A stretch of 64,000 nt of DNA. Source: Bacilli bacterium (GTDB lineage Bacteria > Bacillota_I > Bacilli_A > ML615J-28 > CAG-313). The DNA lies in NCBI GenBank assembly GCA_017501465.1, contig JAFVWY010000012.1:10191-74190 (forward strand). The letters are read 5' to 3'. The stretch's first letter is position 1; each line of letters opens with the position of its first letter. Positions 12,373 through 54,830 of the stretch are shown one piece after another. Both the position numbers and the translations under genes were made by a program. The notes beneath the pieces were generated by a model that saw nothing but the letters and a program-made list of their open reading frames with translations, was not told the DNA's origin and searched no databases.

Positions 12373-12412
12373 ATAAAAAAAATCCAGAACATAAGTTCTG
12401 GATTTTTTATTT
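12373..12412. terminator. Bidirectional rho-independent terminator
   Basis: AAAAAAAATCCAGAAC-ATAA-GTTCTGGATTTTTTAT: perfect 9-bp stem flanked by A-run and T-run between convergent genes. Confidence 0.75.
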
Positions 12413-12417
12413 GGTTA

Positions 12418-12609
12418 CTATTCTTCTTCAATAGCTCCAACAGGGCAGCCTTCTTGGCAAACACCACAGTCGATGCATTGATCAGGATTGATTACATAGA
12501 TATCACCTTGTTCAATACAAGCAACTGGACATTGTTCAGCACAACTACCGCAAGCGATACAAGAGTCAGTAATTTTTCTTGGCATGTTAAATTTCCTCCT
12601 ATTACCCAT
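12418..12609 (-). CDS. Ferredoxin, 2x[4Fe-4S]
   Basis: Two CxxCxxCxxxCP motifs (CIACGSCAEQCP, CIDCGVCQEGCP) in 63 aa. Confidence 0.85.
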   Translation of the reverse strand: MGNRRKFNMPRKITDSCIACGSCAEQCPVACIEQGDIYVINPDQCIDCGVCQEGCPVGAIEEE

Positions 12610-12673
12610 ATATTTTACAAAAAAATATTTATTATTGCAATAATAATGTAAATTTTTTTGAATATTTAAACAC

Positions 12674-12702
12674 TTGATACTTTTTTTCTAATGTAGTATA
12701 AT
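12674..12702 (+). promoter_or_regulatory. SigA-type promoter TTGATA-17-TATAAT
   Basis: Hexamers at 12674-12679 and 12697-12702 upstream of yneF-like gene. Confidence 0.5.
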
Positions 12703-12712
12703 ATATACAAGG

Positions 12713-12961
12713 TTGAAAGGAGTGAGTATCATGAAAATTGCTATTTGGGCATTTATTTTAATTATTTTAGGAGTTTTATTAGTGGGCCTTGTAGTGGGCT
12801 TTATCGTTACACGTAAGATTTTTCAATCTCAATTAGAAAAAAATCCTCCTGTAACAAGAGAAATGATTCGTGCAATGTATATGCAAATGGGTAGAAAACC
12901 TAGCGAATCTGATATTAATCGTGTTATGGCTACTATGAATGTAACACCAAAGAAAAAATAA
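12713..12961 (+). CDS. UPF0154/YneF-family small membrane protein
   Basis: Single N-terminal TM helix followed by charged helical tail; located next to plsY as yneF in Bacillus. Confidence 0.55.
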   Translation: MKGVSIMKIAIWAFILIILGVLLVGLVVGFIVTRKIFQSQLEKNPPVTREMIRAMYMQMGRKPSESDINRVMATMNVTPKKK

Positions 12962-12988
12962 AGTTGATACAATGTATCAACTTTTTTA
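12958..12988. terminator. Bidirectional terminator between yneF-like and plsY
   Basis: AAAGTTGATACAATGTATCAACTTTTTTATTTT palindrome with flanking A/T runs. Confidence 0.6.
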
Positions 12989-13633
12989 TTTTGTTTTACT
13001 CTTAAAAGAGAATTTTGATTCTGTACCATTGATTAAACGTACAATATTTTTGCGATGACTAATAAATAGTGCAACAGTTAAAATAGAACAGAAGATGGTA
13101 AAATACCAGTCTGGTGCTTGTGCATTTAATGTATTAACGAAAAATGATGAGATTAACATTGATAGAATGGTACATAATGAACTAACAGAAACGTATTTGG
13201 TAATCACTAGTGTTAAAATAAAGACGCCAAGGCCAATTAGAAAACACCAAGGAGCATAAGCTAGAATAAAACCAGCTGTACATGCGACGCCTTTTCCTCC
13301 TTTAAATCTAGAAAAAACAGGAAAAATATGTCCAATCACACTAAAAATACCAAAGGTAATAATTGGAAAATGGGTAGGTTCAGCTTCAATTATATTTAGT
13401 GTAAATAAAGCCACAAGTAAAAAACCTTTAAATACATCCAAGAAGAAAACAGCAAAACCTGCTTTTGGTCCTAAGACCCTTAATGAGTTTGTTGCACCCA
13501 TATTTTTACTACCATATTGTCTTACATCAGTTTTATAGAATAATTTCCCTATAATTAAAGCACTAGGAATTGATCCTAAAATGTAGGCAACCGCTAGTAA
13601 AGCGAGCTCAGTATAAATGTCCATTTCATTCAC
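12986..13633 (-). CDS. plsY: Glycerol-3-phosphate acyltransferase PlsY
   Basis: GSKNMGATN and multiple TM segments; plsY-parE-parC neighbourhood. Confidence 0.9.
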   Translation of the reverse strand: MNEMDIYTELALLAVAYILGSIPSALIIGKLFYKTDVRQYGSKNMGATNSLRVLGPKAGFAVFFLDVFKGFLLVALFTLNIIEAEPTHFPIITFGIFSVIGHIFPVFSRFKGGKGVACTAGFILAYAPWCFLIGLGVFILTLVITKYVSVSSLCTILSMLISSFFVNTLNAQAPDWYFTIFCSILTVALFISHRKNIVRLINGTESKFSFKSKTK

Positions 13634-13758
13634 CTCAAATTGTAATAATTATACCATATTTAATATTAAAAGTATCTTTAAATGATAAGTTTTTCGACAA
13701 AATATGCAAATTATTTAGGCAATAAGGGGCTTTTTTAATAAAAAAATTATTTTTTAAT

Positions 13759-13787
13759 TTGCCACATTTTGAAAAATGTGTTATAAT
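13759..13787 (+). promoter_or_regulatory. SigA-type promoter TTGCCA-17-TATAAT (TGT extended -10)
   Basis: Hexamers at 13759-13764 and 13782-13787 upstream of parE. Confidence 0.5.
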
Positions 13788-13830
13788 AAGAAATATAAGA
13801 GGTTAAAAATAATTTTTAGGAGGGTAAAAT

Positions 13831-23984: not shown

Positions 23985-24052
23985 AATAGATTAGCCTCAT
24001 TTTTTTTATTGTTTTAATTTTTTAAATTATCACGATATGATATAATATTATT

Positions 24053-24400
24053 ATGTTAACTAGGAGGAATATTATGGAATTATTACCTGCTTTATTATGT
24101 ATTGTTATTATGATGTATATTATTTATTTAGAATTTAAAAATCCTAAGTATGGAAGAGACATCTTTATTGATTTATCTATCACTATTATTGTCTTGATTG
24201 TTTCTGTTTTTAGCATTTATGAATATAAATTTGATTTTTCCAAAACAATTTGTCAATTATATATTGGTTTAATTTTAATTGGTATTTTTTATATTGGTTT
24301 GGTATATTACCACGAAAAACATCCAAAAACTAAAGTTGAAGATAAACCAGAAGAATTAACTCAAGAAGAAGTTTTAGAAGATCAAACAAATAATGATTAG
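24053..24400 (+). CDS. Hypothetical small membrane protein (3 TM, acidic C-terminal tail)
   Basis: Hydrophobic segments; RBS AGGAGGAAT upstream. Confidence 0.35.
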
Positions 24401-27834: not shown

Positions 27835-28734
27835 ATGGAACATCTTATTAAAGAATATCAGTATTACTTACAAAGTGTTAAAATGATGAGTCAAAATAGT
27901 ATCCTATCATATATTAATGATGTTACTAACTATTTGAATTTCTTAATATCTAAATATCAAGTAGATGATATGGAAGATGTCGGCAGTGAAGAAATAAGAA
28001 GCTATCTTGCAAGCCTTAAGAAGAAAAAAATGTCTTCAGCTTCGATGAGTAGAAATTTATGTAGTGTTAAATCGTTTCATCGGTTTTTATATGAAGAACA
28101 GTATACGAAGAAAAATGTTTCTAAAGAAATTGCTGCTCCTAAAATGGAAAAAAAATTACCAACTGTTTTATCGGTTGATGAGGTCACTAAACTTTTAGAT
28201 ATTGTCCAAGGAGATAAACCTTTAGATAAAAGAAATCAGGCAATGTTAGAAATGATTTATGCAACAGGGCTACGTGTAAGTGAATTGTGTAATATTAAAA
28301 TTACTGATTTAAGATTTACATCCAAACAAATAAGAATATTTGGCAAAGGATCTAAAGAAAGAATAGTACCTATTAATGATTTTGCTTTAAAAAAGATTAG
28401 AACCTATATGTTAGAAGCTAGACCGATTTTGTTGGGAACAAAAAAAGATCAAGGTTTTCTATTCTTAAATAATCATGGTGAAGTAATTACTAGAGTTGGT
28501 TTTTTTAAAATTTTAAAAACTTTGTGTAGTGAAGCAGGAATTGAAAAAAATGTTTCTCCACATACCTTAAGACATTCTTATGCTACGCACTTATTAGAAG
28601 CAGGTGTAGATATTCGTTTGATTCAAGAGATGCTAGGACATGAAGATATTGCTACTACACAAATTTATACTCATTTGAGTTTAAATAAAATTAAGGAAGT
28701 CTATGGAATGGCTCATCCTAGACAGAAAGAGTAA
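27835..28734 (+). CDS. xerD: Tyrosine recombinase XerD (RipX-like)
   Basis: C-terminal catalytic box HTLRHSYATHLLEAGVDIRLIQEMLGHEDIATTQIYTH with R..HxxR..Y; N-terminal SAM-like core-binding domain; xerD-deoB synteny. Confidence 0.85.
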   Translation: MEHLIKEYQYYLQSVKMMSQNSILSYINDVTNYLNFLISKYQVDDMEDVGSEEIRSYLASLKKKKMSSASMSRNLCSVKSFHRFLYEEQYTKKNVSKEIAAPKMEKKLPTVLSVDEVTKLLDIVQGDKPLDKRNQAMLEMIYATGLRVSELCNIKITDLRFTSKQIRIFGKGSKERIVPINDFALKKIRTYMLEARPILLGTKKDQGFLFLNNHGEVITRVGFFKILKTLCSEAGIEKNVSPHTLRHSYATHLLEAGVDIRLIQEMLGHEDIATTQIYTHLSLNKIKEVYGMAHPRQKE

Positions 28735-29921: not shown

Positions 29922-30833
29922 TTGTTTAAAACAGAATATTTAAAATTTGACGATAAAGTTGATTTGAAAGTTTATATTTGGACTCCAAATGAAGGAAATT
30001 TAAAAGGAACAGTTCAAATAGCACATGGAATGGCTGAACATTTAGAAAGATATAATGAATTTGCAATGTTTTTAAATAAACATGGTTATTTAGTTATAGG
30101 TGCTGATCATTATGGACACGGTGGTTCGGTCAAAGATGTTAATAAAATTGGTGTTGTTGTTGATTATGACTTTATGGAGGCTATTCTACAATCAATTTAT
30201 AAAGTTAGAATGAACTATCAAGAACTTTTTAAAGAAAAAGCGATTTTATTTGCTCACTCAATGGGTTCAATGGCTGCCCAAAGATACATTGAACTATATC
30301 CTAAACATTTTAATAAAGTTATTATATCTGGAACAGATTATCCTTTTGGTAAATACTTTTTTGCAAATCTACTTACTTTAGTTAACGGTAAAAAAGGTAG
30401 AATTGTTTATAGTAAGTTTATTGATAACTTAGGCGTTGGCAGTTTTAATAAGCGTTTTGAGAATGAAAAGACGAAAGTTGCCTGGTTAACAACTGATGAG
30501 GATATTCAATATAAATATTTAAATGATCCTTTATGTGGACAAATGTTTCCTGCCAACTATTATCATTCATTATCTAGATTATTGCTTGATTCTAAGAAGA
30601 TGAAAAATAGAAAACGTATAAATCCTCATTTAGAGGTTATGATAATCTCAGGAAAAGACGATCCGGTAGGTGGCTTCGGTAAAGGACCTGAAAAACTAGC
30701 TAAAGATTATTTGAAATTGGGACTGCATGTTCATAAGGTAATCTATCCAGCTGCAAGACATGAATGTTTAAATGAACAAGTTGATGTTAAAAATAAAGTA
30801 TTTAACGATATCATATCATTTATAAAAGACTAA
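29922..30833 (+). CDS. Alpha/beta hydrolase (lysophospholipase/monoacylglycerol lipase-like)
   Basis: HG oxyanion motif, nucleophile elbow AHSMGS, C-terminal D and H. Confidence 0.6.
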   Translation: MFKTEYLKFDDKVDLKVYIWTPNEGNLKGTVQIAHGMAEHLERYNEFAMFLNKHGYLVIGADHYGHGGSVKDVNKIGVVVDYDFMEAILQSIYKVRMNYQELFKEKAILFAHSMGSMAAQRYIELYPKHFNKVIISGTDYPFGKYFFANLLTLVNGKKGRIVYSKFIDNLGVGSFNKRFENEKTKVAWLTTDEDIQYKYLNDPLCGQMFPANYYHSLSRLLLDSKKMKNRKRINPHLEVMIISGKDDPVGGFGKGPEKLAKDYLKLGLHVHKVIYPAARHECLNEQVDVKNKVFNDIISFIKD

Positions 30834-30840
30834 ACAGCTT

Positions 30841-30864
30841 AAAGGCTGTTTTTTCTTTTATTTT
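30841..30864 (+). terminator. Short terminator hairpin after hydrolase gene
   Basis: ACAGCTTAAAGGCTGTTTTTTCTTTT. Confidence 0.4.
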
Positions 30865-30906
30865 GGTATTTTTACTTTGATGTTAATAAATAGTTATAAG
30901 TAGTGT

Positions 30907-31765
30907 AAAAGTCTGATTTTGAGCTTAAAATCAGGCTTATTTTTTATTATAAATGTAGCAAATAAGATGCTTAAAAATTGATTTTTGAGAGTTTGAATGG
31001 GTATTTAATAACATAAAAAAGTCTCAATTTACTATAGAACGGTTTTAATATATAAATTATTATTAAATAGTGCAAATCTTAAAATATTAAATGCAATTTA
31101 TACACTGTTAAATACTACTTAATAACAGGTTATAAACAGTTATCCAAAGTTATTTTATTTTCCATTTTATCGGCTTTTTGCCTAGATAATTAAGAAGTTA
31201 ACATAATATATATTATAGGAAGTAAAAGCAATATAGAAACAAACCAAATAAAACTATTTTTATTACTTCTTATCTTATCGATTATATAGTTTATTTGTCG
31301 ATTTTAATAGAAATATATAAAATAAACTAGCTCATTTTTTAAAACATGATTATGTTTAAAAATTTATCTTTAAGTAAAACTATCAATCAATTCTACTTCT
31401 TAATTATCAACCCTAAAAAACCTCCAAAATCGTTTTTTTATACTATTTTGAATAATTATTCATCTTCTTTAAAAGTCTCAAATTGAGCTTAAAAATGGCC
31501 TAATTTTTAAGTCTTAAAAAATAAAAAAATCTATTATAAAATATTAATTTATAATAGATCAATTGTTGTTTATAAACCCTTCTTAAAGAGTTTGAAATAT
31601 ATTTGATGAGTAAATATCTATATAAGATTCTGTTGTAAGGCTTATATAATATAAATAAAAAATCTACTTTTTGATAAAAACTATTTTTTAGTTTTTTAAA
31701 AAGTAGATAATTATGTTTTAAAAGCCTTCTGTGAGCGTTTGAAATCTTCCAAATGAGTAAATACT
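30907..31765. repeat. ORF-free AT-rich zone built of degenerate copies of a short repeat (AAAAGTCTCA-N-GAGC(G)TTTGAAAT...AATGAGTAAATA) plus an 11-bp inverted repeat
   Basis: Related copies at 30907-30947, 30987-31030, 31471-31510, 31578-31618, 31720-31765; IR ATCTACTTTTT/AAAAAGTAGAT at 31662-31708. Confidence 0.5.
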
Positions 31766-31797
31766 AATTTAAGTTTCTATAAAACGCTTTAACAAAG

Positions 31798-32613
31798 CTA
31801 AAAATTTAGTTTATTAGTTATTTTTAAGCCTAACTCGTCAGCGTATTGATATGCAAGTTTTGTATATTGATCATTAAAAGCTTCTACAGAATGTGAATCA
31901 TCATTAATGACAATAATCAGATCTGGATGATTATCTTGGAATTTTTTAATGACTTGCCAGAAAGGAATATACGGATATTTAAAAAGTTTAGAATCTAAAA
32001 TACCGTTATTTTTGAATACAGAGCTTCTAATACCATTTGCATTGAATTCTAACGCAACATGGTTTTTTAAAGCTGTTTCTGCGATTGAAATAGCGACATT
32101 TTCACATTGTTTAGTAAAACTTGGGTATCTATACATATACAATTCAGGATGAGCAAATATTTTGAATAATCCCGTTTCCATCGCGTTTAAAACCTTATTT
32201 TTATAAATCTCAATATCATCTTCATTAAAGTCGTATGAATAAGTACTTTTGTAATTACCATCTTTATAAATTTCATGTTGGCCTAGTACTAAATAGTCAA
32301 CTTTTTCCCTTAATGTGGTAATTCGAGATTGGTAATGGTCGTAATATTCTATTTCAAGCGCTGTGAGAACGGTTATTTGGTCATTATACTTCTTCTTTAG
32401 GTTGTTTAAGTCCTTAAGATAGACATTAATGAATTCATCTTCTGACATACGTCTTGATCTAAGTTTTAGTGTTAATTCATCACTAATTGGTCCATGATCA
32501 GAAATACCAATATGGCAAAATCCATCTTGAATGGCCTTTTGAATGTATTCTTCACTAGTTCCAGTCGCATGTTTACAAAGATAAATATGTGTATGATAAT
32601 TAGCAATTCGCAT
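31798..32613 (-). CDS. PHP-domain phosphoesterase, histidinol-phosphatase (HisJ/HisK) family
   Basis: N-terminal HTHIYLCKHATG, ISDHGP, EIEY, AHPEL, EFNANG, DDSH metal-ligand pattern; 271 aa. Confidence 0.6.
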   Translation of the reverse strand: MRIANYHTHIYLCKHATGTSEEYIQKAIQDGFCHIGISDHGPISDELTLKLRSRRMSEDEFINVYLKDLNNLKKKYNDQITVLTALEIEYYDHYQSRITTLREKVDYLVLGQHEIYKDGNYKSTYSYDFNEDDIEIYKNKVLNAMETGLFKIFAHPELYMYRYPSFTKQCENVAISIAETALKNHVALEFNANGIRSSVFKNNGILDSKLFKYPYIPFWQVIKKFQDNHPDLIIVINDDSHSVEAFNDQYTKLAYQYADELGLKITNKLNF

Positions 32614-32615
32614 TT

Positions 32616-33653
32616 CTATTCACCAACAACCCTTGATAAAGGAACATTTTCAGTATTTTTTCGCCATTTTGCACTTCGACCAGTTCCTAAAGGCATAATT
32701 ACGCCATCATCTCTTAATTTGTTTAAAACACGATTAATTGTCGCATCACTAACACCTGGATTTAATTCCCTAACATCATCTTTAGAAAAGAATTCAGGAA
32801 GTTTATAAATACTAGTTTCCACATTATCAGTTTTTAAACCTTTATTTTGGTATTCATATTTTTTAACATCTTCGTTTAATGTTTTATAAGCATCAATGAT
32901 AATATCAAAAATAACCTTACTAAATCCGGTAGCTTGGATAAAACCATCAAAATAGTTAATGCTAGCTTTTTTAATTTCATCTTCTATTATAGCGTATTTT
33001 TCATAGAAAAATTTGAATAAACTTTGATATTTAAACACAGTAATATTATTTCTACACATTGAATAATATAAAGATATTAAGGCTGCTAATTCATTTTCTG
33101 AATTAAAAGGTTGTAAATTAATTATATCTAAATATAATATTACACTCAAAATGATTGGTTCATATTTTTTATTATCAATAAATAATTGGTATTCATCTAA
33201 ACACTCATTTATTAATAAACGAACAGATTGTTTGATAATTCGTTTATTTACAACGGTATTGATTGTTTTATTATTATAATTAAATTTATGTTTACCATAG
33301 ATATGATTTAAGTATGATATTAATTCACCAGCATTTAAAGGATATCTAAGGGCATCGGTTTTAATAATTTGAAAGGTTGTTTTAATATTTTTAATGGCTT
33401 CTTCTTCTTTATTTTTGGGTTGAATATCTTTATTTAATAGTAAACGTATTCTATTATCTGTAACTTCTAGGCCTAAAATATGAGCAATATAGAAAGTATC
33501 TTCTAAAAGAGTCTTTTCTTCACTAATTTCTTTTAAAGTGCCTAATTTATCAAGGTATGTATCAGTTTTACCGATTTCTTTATAGGCATTTAACATTTGG
33601 ATTAATAATTCGGATGGTATAATATAATGATTTAAGTTTTCAAAATTACTCAT
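32616..33653 (-). CDS. Fic-fold-like protein with degenerate active-site motif and C-terminal winged-helix domain
   Basis: QPFNSENELAALI aligns to Fic HPFxDGNGRxxRLL with H, D, G, G, R all replaced; C-terminal ATINRVLNKLRDDGVIMPLGTGRSAKWRK wHTH. Confidence 0.35.
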   Translation of the reverse strand: MSNFENLNHYIIPSELLIQMLNAYKEIGKTDTYLDKLGTLKEISEEKTLLEDTFYIAHILGLEVTDNRIRLLLNKDIQPKNKEEEAIKNIKTTFQIIKTDALRYPLNAGELISYLNHIYGKHKFNYNNKTINTVVNKRIIKQSVRLLINECLDEYQLFIDNKKYEPIILSVILYLDIINLQPFNSENELAALISLYYSMCRNNITVFKYQSLFKFFYEKYAIIEDEIKKASINYFDGFIQATGFSKVIFDIIIDAYKTLNEDVKKYEYQNKGLKTDNVETSIYKLPEFFSKDDVRELNPGVSDATINRVLNKLRDDGVIMPLGTGRSAKWRKNTENVPLSRVVGE

Positions 33654-34256
33654 TTATAATACCCCTTTCTATTTTAGAATAATGACAACCACAATAGTTT
33701 TGTCGGTATAATTCATATTTTTTAGATAGTTCGATGGATTTTTGATATCCATTTTGTAGTTTAAAGTTAGAATAAATAAAAGGAACGTCAACAATTTTTG
33801 ATAATTCAAAGCCAATTTCGTTAATCCAAGTACTATTTTTATGTGGACTAATACTTAAAGTTGTTGTCCAATAATCATAGTTATGTTCTTTAGCATAGAG
33901 TGCTGTTTTATACATTCTCAATTTATAACAGTGATAGCAGCGAATGGATTTTTCTTTTAAATGTTCAAATCCTTTGATACTATTATAGAAGTTATAGGTG
34001 TATAAGGATCAATAATAACTTTTGATTCTGGGGTTAATATGTTTGCAATTCTGACTTGTTCTTCACTTCTTTTATTGAATTCTTCAATTGTATCTAGGTT
34101 ATCATTTGAATAGAAAACATCGACTTGAAAACCTTCTTTTAAAAGTTCAATACAAGCTGAACTACATGGTCCACAACAACTATGTAGAAGTATTTTTTTG
34201 TTGGTTTTATCTTGGATTAATGATAGTAATGATTTATAATCCAAAACGTTGTTCAT
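33646..34256 (-). pseudogene. queH: Epoxyqueuosine reductase QueH (DUF208) interrupted by a frameshift
   Basis: N-terminal ORF 33957-34256 carries LLHSCCGPCS; C-terminal ORF 33646-33921 carries RCYHCY (reading-frame extension), TTTLSISP and YCGCHYS; frames switch near 33995-34010 (IIDPY then YNFYNSIKGFEHLKEKSIRCYHC in the other frame). Confidence 0.6.
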
Positions 34257-35918: not shown

Positions 35919-35980
35919 TTTTCTCCACTATAAATTATACTAGAAAAAAATCAAAATGTAAAATGTTAAATAAAAAAATA

Positions 35981-36051
35981 AAACCCCGTTTAGAGCGTTT
36001 GAGATTCATTAACTTGGTAATTAATCATCTCGAACGCTTAAAATGGGGTTT
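35981..36051. repeat. 71-bp palindromic repeat element (copy A): AAACCCC-GTTTAGAGCGTTTGAGAT-loop-ATCTCGAACGCTTAAAAT-GGGGTTT
   Basis: Long imperfect hairpin; near-identical reverse-complement copy at 44748-44819; half-copies in 30.9-31.8 kb zone. Confidence 0.65.
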
Positions 36052-36055
36052 CAAA

Positions 36056-36934
36056 TTATAAATATTTATTTGCTAAAGTTTTATGAACTGACCAATCTGA
36101 AGAAATATTAAAAGAAACGATGATAATTAGATTTTCTCCTTTTTCATAAACACTAACTAACGTTCGTCCTGCTTTTTTAGTATAACCAGTTTTACCTCCG
36201 ATTAAAAAGTTTTCGGTAATAAGTAATTTATGCTTGTGTCTTACATAAATTGTTCGTTCATCAAATTTAATTTTATATTCTTTTAATCCAATTAAGTCTT
36301 TTAAATAAGGATACTTTAATAATTCTTTAGTTATTATTGCAAAGTCATAAGTTGAAGTATAATTAAATTCATCTTCATCAAGTCCAGTTGTATTATTAAA
36401 GATCGAGTTTTTCAACCCTAACCGTTTAACTTCATCATTCATTAATAAAATAAAATCATCAGGATTATCGCTATAGGCATATTGTAAAGCTTTAGCCGCA
36501 TCATTTCCACTTTGTAGAATCATTCCGATAATCAAATCTTCTACCCGTATTAGATCATCTTTTTCTAGATAGATTCTACTACCAGTAACATTAATCATAT
36601 CGGAAGATATTTTTATGACTTTATTTAAATCAATGTATTTATAAGCTACTAGTGCTGTTAAAAGTTTAGTCAAACTTGCAGGTAACATTTTTTGATGAAT
36701 ATTGTTTTGATATAATATTTCATCATTATTAACACTATATACAATTGTTGATGAATTATTATAATTATTCATGACTAGTTTTACATCATTATTAGTCTTA
36801 GAATAGATTATTAAAATAATCGTACAAAGCCATAATATTAACCATACAATGTTAATTATTAATTTTCTTTTATTCATATTATCACATTTAATAATATGAA
36901 TAGACATTAAAAAATATGAAAAAACACTATACAC
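36056..36934 (-). CDS. dacA: D-alanyl-D-alanine carboxypeptidase (S11, PBP5-like)
   Basis: SxxK motif PASLTKLLTA, SGN (LQSGND), KTG (GKTGYT); true start probably the internal Met of the MNKRKLIINIVWLILWL signal peptide. Confidence 0.8.
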   Translation of the reverse strand: MYSVFSYFLMSIHIIKCDNMNKRKLIINIVWLILWLCTIILIIYSKTNNDVKLVMNNYNNSSTIVYSVNNDEILYQNNIHQKMLPASLTKLLTALVAYKYIDLNKVIKISSDMINVTGSRIYLEKDDLIRVEDLIIGMILQSGNDAAKALQYAYSDNPDDFILLMNDEVKRLGLKNSIFNNTTGLDEDEFNYTSTYDFAIITKELLKYPYLKDLIGLKEYKIKFDERTIYVRHKHKLLITENFLIGGKTGYTKKAGRTLVSVYEKGENLIIIVSFNISSDWSVHKTLANKYL

Positions 36935-44569: not shown

Positions 44570-44747
44570 GAACTATTCCTCCTTCTATATTATTTTAAGA
44601 CACGCCATTAAGGTATAAGTCATTACTTATTTTACGTAACCTTTTCAGTGCGGTTGCCATATCGCAACATACATATTATACAATATTACTCATTTTTTTG
44701 CAAGTGTTATGTTAATTAAATTTGTATATAAAAGTATGTTTATCTTT

Positions 44748-54574: not shown

Positions 54575-54830
54575 AACCTCCTAATCAATAAAAAAAAGTC
54601 CCTAAGAATAACTCTTAAGGACGAAATAATCCGCGGTACCACCTTAATTAAAACAAATTAATGTTTTCACTTAATTAACTGTTAACGCCAGTGTACGTTC
54701 AATTCTACTACGATTTCAAATTGACTTCTCCAAGGCTACCTTCAAAATAACAATATGAAGTTTCACACCAAACAACTTCTCTCTGGAATATCGTTTATTT
54801 TTACTCTTCCTCTTCTTTGAATTTAGATAG
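54575..54830 (-). promoter_or_regulatory. T-box riboswitch leader for valS
   Basis: Minus-strand GGTGGTACCGCGG (plus 54631-54643), followed by terminator hairpin GTCCTTAAGAG..CTCTTAGGGAC plus U-run (54596-54622). Confidence 0.65.

Follow-up and report, generated by a model that had tools for sequence, protein, structure and literature searches.

Chromosomal dif sites of Firmicutes are described as single copies that sit at the switch of GC skew between convergent genes. The dif of Bacillus subtilis (ACTTCCTAGAATATATATTATGTAAACT; CodV/RipX) comprises 28 bp arranged as 11+6+11, and chromosomal dif is described as working without the need for accessory sequences. Plasmid Xer sites of the cer and psi type combine a core Xer site with about 150-200 bp of conserved flank; their accessory sequences are confined to the XerC side and are recognised by PepA, ArgR or ArcA. 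To our knowledge, no equivalent of Tus, RTP or MatP is known in Firmicutes outside Bacillus, where the organisation of the terminus is an open question. Here we analyse a stretch of 64,000 nucleotides (contig JAFVWY010000012.1, hereafter the window) from an uncultured low-GC lineage of Bacilli that is represented only by metagenomes. The subject is a gene-free zone within it, which holds a dif site.

Taken as a whole, the zone is best explained as a replication-terminus intergenic region with dif inside a conserved cassette of fixed geometry, and we hold this reading with considerable confidence. The site, the only one in the 64-kb window, resembles other Firmicute dif sites in its place at the skew switch between convergent genes, and it is identical to the B. 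subtilis dif at 26 of 28 positions; xerD is encoded nearby. Unlike chromosomal dif as usually described, it is accompanied at fixed distances by a palindrome, by oriented motifs that resemble DnaA boxes and by a gene of the PHP family. The conserved flank recalls cer and psi and is presumably protein-bound as well; the site here differs from them in being chromosomal, in having flanks on both sides and in its motifs, and no similar plasmid sequence was found. While the dif/terminus locus itself is of a known kind, the fixed-geometry cassette appears to be new: no description of the combination of dif, PHP gene, palindrome and DnaA-box-like motifs was found in the searchable literature, an earlier description being possible.

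The dif site and the replication terminus

The zone (30834-31797, 964 bp) is bordered by the stop codons of a gene for an alpha/beta-hydrolase and of a gene for a PHP-family phosphoesterase (Table 1). An earlier reading of the sequence alone, made without database searches (the sequence-only reading), had singled it out as a tract of unusual length without open reading frames (ORFs), placed where transcription converges, and had proposed it as a candidate terminus and dif region. This description holds. The zone contains no ORF of at least 60 aa, the only ones being of 34 and 46 aa. No other gap in the window, about 93% of which is coding, is as large; the next measures 613 bp and the median is 17.5 bp. 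Gene orientation changes across the zone, from the + strand (up to 30833) to the - strand (from 31798 to the window's end). Of the substantial ORFs, all but one or two on the left read on the + strand, and every one on the right reads on the - strand. GC skew ranges from +0.2 to +0.29 left of the zone and from -0.1 to -0.24 right of it. The cumulative G-C count reaches its maximum at 31072, and the plateau within 5 of this maximum (30991-31253) contains dif.

A search with the dif consensus gave exactly one match in the 64 kb. It lies inside the zone and has two mismatches to the B. subtilis dif; none of 100 shuffled sequences gave a match. Its XerD arm agrees with that of E. coli at 10 of 11 positions. 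Palindromic arms, a single copy and a position at the skew shift point are the features by which dif sites are judged (PMC3025954), and all are seen here, the single copy within the 64-kb window. The sequence-only reading had named a weak dif-like half-site at 31350-31360, which is not dif and forms part of one arm of the conserved palindrome described below; the full 28-bp site, about 130 bp away and on the - strand, had been missed. That reading was right about xerD. The gene (27835-28734, + strand) lies 2.5 kb from dif, scores 348.7 bits with TIGR02225 (recomb_XerD) against a cut-off of 329.6, and has the Pfam Phage_integrase domain with a SAM-like N-terminal domain; its product is a tyrosine recombinase, one of the pair acting at dif. 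As an observation apart, a perfect 13/13 copy of the XerD arm and part of the central region (TATTATGTTAACT) occurs at 24049-24061 (+), 7 kb from dif. It overlaps the ATG of a small ORF (24053-24400) and only the three closest lineages have it at this position.

The junction is kept, without rearrangement, in about 22 species-level relatives, all of which show the flip from + to - skew at dif and share the gene order mutL-miaA-...-PAP2-Fic-PHP > dif < hydrolase-deoB-xerD-hemW-lepA. In lineages whose PHP protein is 75%, 54% and 54% identical to that of the window, the gene order is unchanged and the gap measures 786-847 bp. Across such lineages (PHP protein 54-75% identical; L011, L017, L019, L021 and many more) dif itself is 28/28 identical and in the same orientation, and there is one dif-like site per locus, in the 64-kb window as in every 20-kb relative locus. 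In a complete related genome (CP076020.1) the orthologous locus lies at 49.5% of the chromosome. The nearest named relatives are metagenome-assembled genomes labelled Bacilli, Acholeplasmatales, Mollicutes or "Staphylococcus sp. CAG:324". Contigs of the same species (L001-L010) are 99.97% identical to the window and hence uninformative for conservation, and the alpha/beta-hydrolase protein recovered no relative when used as a query against genome contigs. Skew, dif search, conserved junction and mid-chromosome position together support the terminus assignment, and the sequence-only reading went wrong in two details, the coordinates of dif and the nature of the repeats. The assignment is routine yet useful, in that it marks where the two replichores meet in this uncultured lineage of gut Bacilli.

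Polar motifs point to the same place. GAAGAAG is the KOPS of L. lactis, the motif that orients FtsK (PMC3384302). Within the zone every AAGAAG lies left of dif and every CTTCTT right of it, so that the orientation switches cleanly at dif. Over the whole window GAAGAAG is directed towards dif in a ratio of 40:2, a count confounded by gene orientation, as the intergenic copies are not. In the intergenic DNA within +/-200 nt of dif at 40 loci, AGAAG/GAAGAAG is always forward where it lies on the XerC side and always reverse on the XerD side. Judged by these patterns, motifs of a kind that may guide the translocase converge on dif. If the established XerCD/FtsK pathway operates here, XerC would bind ACTTCCTATAA and XerD TTATGTTAACT. 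A translocase of the FtsK/SpoIIIE type, guided by the polar GAAGAAG-type motifs, would arrive at dif at septation and trigger strand exchange across TATATA, by which a chromosome dimer would be resolved to monomers. Two intrinsic terminators on each side would halt converging transcription short of dif.

Two other readings of the locus bear on these data. An A+T-rich gap with DnaA-box-like motifs could in principle be a replication origin, and we consider the chance of this negligible: the skew changes from + to - and the genes converge, the opposite of oriC, where the change is from - to + and the genes diverge. Neither dnaA nor dnaN lies nearby, the orthologous locus is at mid-chromosome in the complete genome, and a perfect dif is present. 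It is also scarcely credible that an integrated element that used Xer recombination (IMEX) left the repeats near dif as scars, or that this is a site of the plasmid type together with its accessory sequences. Such a history would fit a weak 149-nt direct repeat (64%) that flanks dif, an inverted copy of the flank on the XerD side, which is lineage-specific and only weakly conserved in relatives, and the presence of dif-like sites in some Listeria and Staphylococcus phages. An IMEX, however, encloses foreign genes between two dif-like sites, and here each locus has one such site. Neither an integrase gene nor phage or plasmid genes lie nearby, and the architecture is identical in all relatives. 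No viral contig carries this dif, and the sole "plasmid" match is a mislabelled Bacillus chromosome.

That match, NZ_CP093325.1 (L212), is a replicon of Bacillus sp. N5-665 filed as a plasmid in PLSDB; it is evidently a chromosome, given its size of 5.52 Mb and a dif at 51% of its length. As for the phages, Listeria phage P70 (L213, JX442241.1 55356-55392) has a site with both arms identical to those of this dif and a different central hexamer (ACTTCCTATAACATACATTATGTTAACT), within an 830-bp gap between convergent genes. A dif-like site is also present in 15 related Listeria phages and one Staphylococcus phage.

Conserved elements at fixed distances from dif

The cassette has a constant layout: the PHP-family gene, then, on the XerC side, a palindrome about 135 bp from dif, then dif itself, then one or two boxes in a single orientation at +38 to +67 on the XerD side. 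Besides the relatives, we used a held-out set of 80 metagenome contigs that had been fetched by the dif core alone and that represent 56 non-redundant loci.

The palindrome, at about -135 to -95 relative to dif, was found in 21/21 lineages, as a single copy per locus and beside dif only. Among the held-out contigs it was detected in 17 of the 80, always 132-138 nt before dif, and further ones are recognisable by eye. Examples are TAAACATATTCAT-9-ATGAATATGTTAAC in L153 and AAACGGGGTCA-11-TGACCCCGTT in L113 and L116, the latter with four inner positions changed in both arms. The outer and inner pairs are symmetric and near-invariant, and the middle four positions are mostly unpaired. An RNA hairpin was considered and rejected, as the middle lacks pairing and the RNA fold has z = -0.4. 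With symmetric invariant ends, an unpaired middle and instability as RNA, the element looks like the site of a dimeric DNA-binding protein. The dimer that may bind it is possibly XerD. The arms resemble the XerD arm in many lineages (ATATGTTAAC vs TTATGTTAAC), though not in all, L113 and L116 having GACCCCGTT.

A role for XerD away from dif has a described precedent. In B. subtilis, dif-like sites of the terminus called XDS are used by XerD, without recombination, to unload SMC (Karaboja et al. 2021 as summarised in PMC11840125). Going by that summary, the palindrome is similar in the XerD-like arms of many lineages and differs in number and placement, since XDS are several scattered sites and here a single palindrome stands at a fixed 135 bp from dif. 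Scattered sites of the XDS type were also sought here and rejected: at 25 loci, within +/-10 to 31 kb, 15 isolated XerD arms were counted against 15.9 expected.

On the XerD side, the box motif of the relatives reads TGT[G/T]NATAAC (TTATN[C/A]ACA on the other strand) and stands at +47/48, often also at +57 to +67. Among 30 loci, TGTKNATAA occurs 28 times in the bin from +40 to +79, where 0.25 are expected, and once on the other strand. A box with at most one mismatch to TGTGGATAA is present within +/-80 nt in 13 of 17 clade groups, six non-syntenic contexts included (p ≈ 1e-12, with a chance expectation of about 7% per lineage). The held-out loci gave the same picture. A forward box at +30 to +80 was found in 23/56 and a reverse one in 0/56, against 0.008 expected per locus (p ≈ 5e-34). 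Most boxes begin near +38, +47/48 or +67, and in ten loci two of them abut in tandem.

The degeneracy of the box (C/A at position 6, A/G/T at position 3) is the same as in the experimental DnaA matrix of B. subtilis (PMC4447404 Table S3). When this matrix was used to scan one strand, 84% of the clade representatives and 47% of the held-out loci exceeded the control 95th percentile, and on the other strand 4%. The two boxes of the window have one mismatch each to TTATNCACA, and they count as DnaA boxes where up to one mismatch is allowed (PMC2533591); the boxes of relatives are often perfect. In Izemoplasmatales-like and some other lineages (L054-L057, L137, L094) an inverted pair of DnaA-box-like motifs (e.g. 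TGTGGATAAATCCACA) lies on the XerC side, at about -27 to -36, and replaces or supplements the boxes of the XerD side.

Two further blocks keep their place in the relatives (Table 1). The 30-nt extension outside the XerD arm aligns without gaps over 21 lineages (consensus a.TaAAAAAt.tAaGtAAaAAGcc.ATAAAT); it is specific to the clade, being present in 5/80 held-out contigs. The short block on the XerC side has the same offset in most of the 21 lineages.

The PHP gene completes the layout. In about 30 species of the Genome Taxonomy Database (GTDB), dif lies 260-1300 nt downstream of it, and in about 31/80 held-out contigs a PHP gene in the same orientation ends 200-330 nt before dif. The products of these genes are often 28-37% identical to that of the window, and about 19 of the contigs have no other detectable gene of the neighbourhood. 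The persistence of the gene beside dif in very divergent contigs (L092-L171) suggests a functional link between the two. Palindrome and box were found in 13/27 and 18/27 PHP-linked loci, compared with 5/29 and 8/29 of the other loci. The pairs xerS-difSL and xerH-difH are a parallel, in that there too a gene is linked to a dif-type site over large evolutionary distances. In those systems, however, the linked gene encodes the recombinase and here it encodes a PHP-family phosphoesterase, xerD being near in this clade only. Next to the PHP gene and co-transcribed with it lies a gene (32616-33653, -) for a 345-aa Fido/Fic protein whose C-terminal part is a winged helix (PDB 8uqu, E = 1e-15); the gene is kept beside PHP and dif in many relatives. 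We found no evidence that the zone is bound by this protein or by the 148-aa membrane protein encoded next to xerD.

It might be argued that only dif is functional and that the remainder is neutral spacer or a decayed gene remnant, whose similarity among relatives reflects shared ancestry. A terminus tolerates junk; the tract has 20% GC and ranges from 786 to 964 bp in length, one hairpin copy is decayed and the duplication is specific to the lineage. Moreover, presence-based 8-mer enrichment did not separate the tract from an A+T-rich null, which gave similar counts. We nevertheless think this improbable. Conserved blocks stand at fixed offsets between unconserved spacers across lineages whose proteins are 28-55% identical, and in held-out loci with nothing else in common, box and palindrome keep both their position and their strand. 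Nor is there a conserved ORF: the 46-aa ORF (31346-31486) is reduced to only 7-18 codons in relatives.

Candidate binding proteins and a possible function

From the agreement with the experimental matrix, we infer that the boxes may be DnaA binding sites. Together with the palindrome, as the site of a dimer, they would build a larger nucleoprotein complex at the terminus. Groups of DnaA boxes outside oriC are known as the DnaA-box clusters (DBCs) of B. subtilis and as datA of E. coli, and these include intergenic boxes of the TTATNCACA type, also between convergent genes (gcp-ydiF). They are, however, origin-proximal and dense, whereas the terminus here has one or two boxes, oriented alike and at a constant distance from the XerD arm. 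No report of DnaA boxes beside dif was found in the literature searched.

Several observations weigh against the reading outlined so far and the proteins that it names. Within the 64-kb window neither DnaA nor FtsK/SpoIIIE is encoded, and there is no second Xer paralogue (XerC). The boxes of the window are weak, with matrix scores of 7.64 and 5.03 where the 95th percentile of the controls is 7.31. In B. subtilis, stable DnaA binding needs dense clusters of boxes, and none of the eight stable sites is reported at dif (PMC2533591); here there are one or two boxes per locus. Because of this small number and the weak boxes of the window, DnaA binding is put forward as a suggestion. In L023, the sole lineage that is informative on the point, the palindrome arms fail to track the XerD arm. 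Finally, the Bacillus sp. N5-665 chromosome has the identical dif without the cassette, which indicates that the accessory sites are dispensable for dif function generally and that the cassette is no automatic corollary of the dif sequence.

A serious alternative, which we judge possible if not the likelier case, is that the boxes are read by another, terminus-specific protein rather than by DnaA; they could for instance be a diverged extra XerD half-site (ATGTTAA-TAACT vs ATGTTAACT) or a polar fork-arrest site of the Ter kind. The E. coli Ter core GTTGTAAC is similar to GTTGATAAC, and in A+T-rich lineages the box motif (TGTTAATAA, TGTTGATAA) overlaps with XerD-arm sequence. A single orientation at a constant distance from the XerD arm would be in keeping with a partner protein of XerD, and the number of boxes is below that usual at stable DnaA sites. 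On the other hand, many lineages have a perfect TGTGGATAA, TGTGGACAA or TGTGGAAAA, unlike the XerD arm, and the degeneracy of the box mirrors the experimental DnaA matrix. Boxes that flank dif on both sides share one orientation, which is unsuited to a fork trap. A fork trap of the Tus-Ter or RTP-Ter type has oppositely oriented polar sites and a gene for the terminator protein; the former are lacking here, and the ten flanking proteins include no homologue of tus or rtp.

Returning to DnaA as the protein that may occupy the boxes, we put forward a wider proposal, tentatively and in the expectation that it may well prove wrong. Across a wide range of low-GC Bacilli and Mollicutes-like bacteria, dif could be the core of a terminus-organiser cassette of about 230-500 bp, with DnaA on the boxes and a dimeric factor on the palindrome. 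The factor on the palindrome would be XerD, acting without recombination as at XDS, or a protein with a functional tie to the PHP-family gene, and the bound proteins together would control dimer resolution or SMC unloading, or signal the completion of replication to the control of initiation. A search of JGI metagenomes with the strict composite pattern gave no match. Independently of the proteins involved, the cassette supplies concrete DNA elements around dif, including motifs indistinguishable from DnaA boxes and a dif-linked PHP gene. If DnaA does bind beside dif, the initiator would be physically tied to the site where replication and segregation end, and a DnaA-titrating or DnaA-sensing site at the terminus would double only at the end of replication.

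Terminators, repeats and other features of the window

The features of the zone are listed in Table 1. Hairpin z-scores there come from RNA folding compared with shuffled sequences, on the strand where the terminator would act.

Table 1. Coordinates of the elements in and around the zone.
Feature	Position	Strand	Remarks
Zone borders	30831-30833; 31798-31800	+; -	stop codons of the alpha/beta-hydrolase gene and of the PHP-family gene
Intrinsic terminator of the alpha/beta-hydrolase gene	30832..30861 (hairpin 30832-30851 + T-run)	+	-11.6 kcal/mol, z = -3.4
Back-up terminator	30909..30948 (hairpin 30909-30938)	+	13-bp stem + T-run; -13.8 kcal/mol, z = -4.2
Tandem 9-mer pair, DnaA-box-like	31130-31138; 31140-31148	+	TTATAAACA; TTATCCAAA; start 57 and 47 nt beyond the XerD arm
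Conserved 30-nt extension	31166..31195	-	TCTTAATTATCTAGGCAAAAAGCCGATAAA; directly outside the XerD arm
AAGAAG polar motif	31192..31197	+	abuts the XerD arm, directed at dif
dif	31196-31223	-	ACTTCCTATAATATATATTATGTTAACT; XerC arm 31213-31223, central TATATA 31207-31212, XerD arm 31196-31206
CTTCTT mirror copies	31266, 31396, 31464, 31579		as read on the + strand
Conserved block	31290..31301	-	TCGACAAATAAA; ~75 nt from the XerC arm
Palindrome	31319..31361		TAAAC-N4-TCAT / ~10 nt / ATGA-N4-GTTTA; arms 31323-31335, 31346-31358
Inverted partial copy of the XerD-arm flank	31395..31418	+	83%
Second AAAAGTCT..TTGAGCTTAAAA copy	31471..31494	+	also written AAAAGTCT..GAGCTTAAAA; decayed terminator-type hairpin, z = -0.85
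A/T-rich terminator of the PHP operon, distal copy	31516..31559 (hairpin 31529-31559)	-	U-run; -10.9 kcal/mol, z = -3.5
65-nt module, copy b	31567..31631	-	part of the ~147-bp tandem duplication
A/T-rich terminator of the PHP operon, proximal copy	31650..31708 (hairpin 31662-31708)	-	U-run; -14.9 kcal/mol, z = -5.0
65-nt module, copy a	31714..31778	-	3' untranslated region of the PHP gene; kept in L011 and L017
PHP-family phosphoesterase gene	31798..32613	-	Pfam PHP; distantly HisJ-like (PDB HisJ, E = 1e-12)

The four stable hairpins are terminators, as judged by the U- or T-run after each and by their position at the ends of the flanking genes. The 11-bp inverted repeat that the sequence-only reading had reported at 31662-31708 is real and is the hairpin of the proximal terminator of the PHP operon, on the - strand. 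The two terminators on the + strand were also detected in a scan for terminators, and the back-up one is kept in L011 and L017. That reading had further counted five or more copies of a degenerate short repeat and had linked the repeat-laden character of the zone to dif. Repeats do exist, but they belong to two different modules with 2-3 copies each, and they are for the most part terminators together with one tandem duplication. The AAAAGTCT..TTGAGCTTAAAA module has two copies where 0.04 are expected. The second of these is the decayed hairpin of Table 1, and at the orthologous position relatives have a working terminator (AAGCCCATTTTGGGCTTTTT). The bare 13-mer GAGNGTTTGAAAT is not above chance (19 observed, 13 expected). 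The 65-nt module has two copies at a spacing of 147, with 72% identity (blastn E = 2e-8), each with a hairpin of its own. The extra length of the zone, 964 bp against about 787 bp in relatives, is due to the tandem duplication of about 147 bp, the relatives having one copy. A terminator unit that was tandemly duplicated in this lineage would account for most of the "repeats" and for the added length.

The hairpins also bear on the suggestion that the tract encodes a small non-coding RNA, with the conserved blocks as its promoter and structure. A long, conserved, ORF-free tract with several hairpins is what such a gene might look like. Yet the stable hairpins are all terminators, the palindrome is unstable as RNA with its middle positions unpaired, no conserved promoter was found in the tract, and no Rfam family matches the zone either at gathering thresholds or at E <= 5. 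We regard a non-coding RNA as very unlikely. Genes for tRNA or tmRNA were not found in the zone.

A few observations elsewhere in the window may be recorded. The long hairpin at 35980-36050, with a T-run behind it on the - strand, includes GAGCGTTTGAGAT and is the ordinary terminator of the gene at 36056-36934; the copy of GAGNGTTTGAAAT at 35993 belongs to this hairpin, a short word that it has in common with the repeat module of the zone. The second-largest gap (613 bp; 12373-13830) adjoins a lone - strand gene (12986-13633) in the + strand replichore. The gene queH (33646-34256, -) is split at about 33994 into two ORFs by a 1-nt deletion relative to contigs of the same species, which encode an intact 203-aa QueH, and the window copy is either a pseudogene or an assembly error. 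Two RNA leaders precede - strand genes, a T-box (54614-54826, -; 154 bits) and a ribosomal protein L21 leader (44588-44665, -; 38.5 bits). A gene of the SpoVIF family (20511-20741 in L001, about 21.9-22.1 kb in the window) hints at sporulation genes in a clade whose relatives are labelled Mollicutes or Acholeplasmatales.

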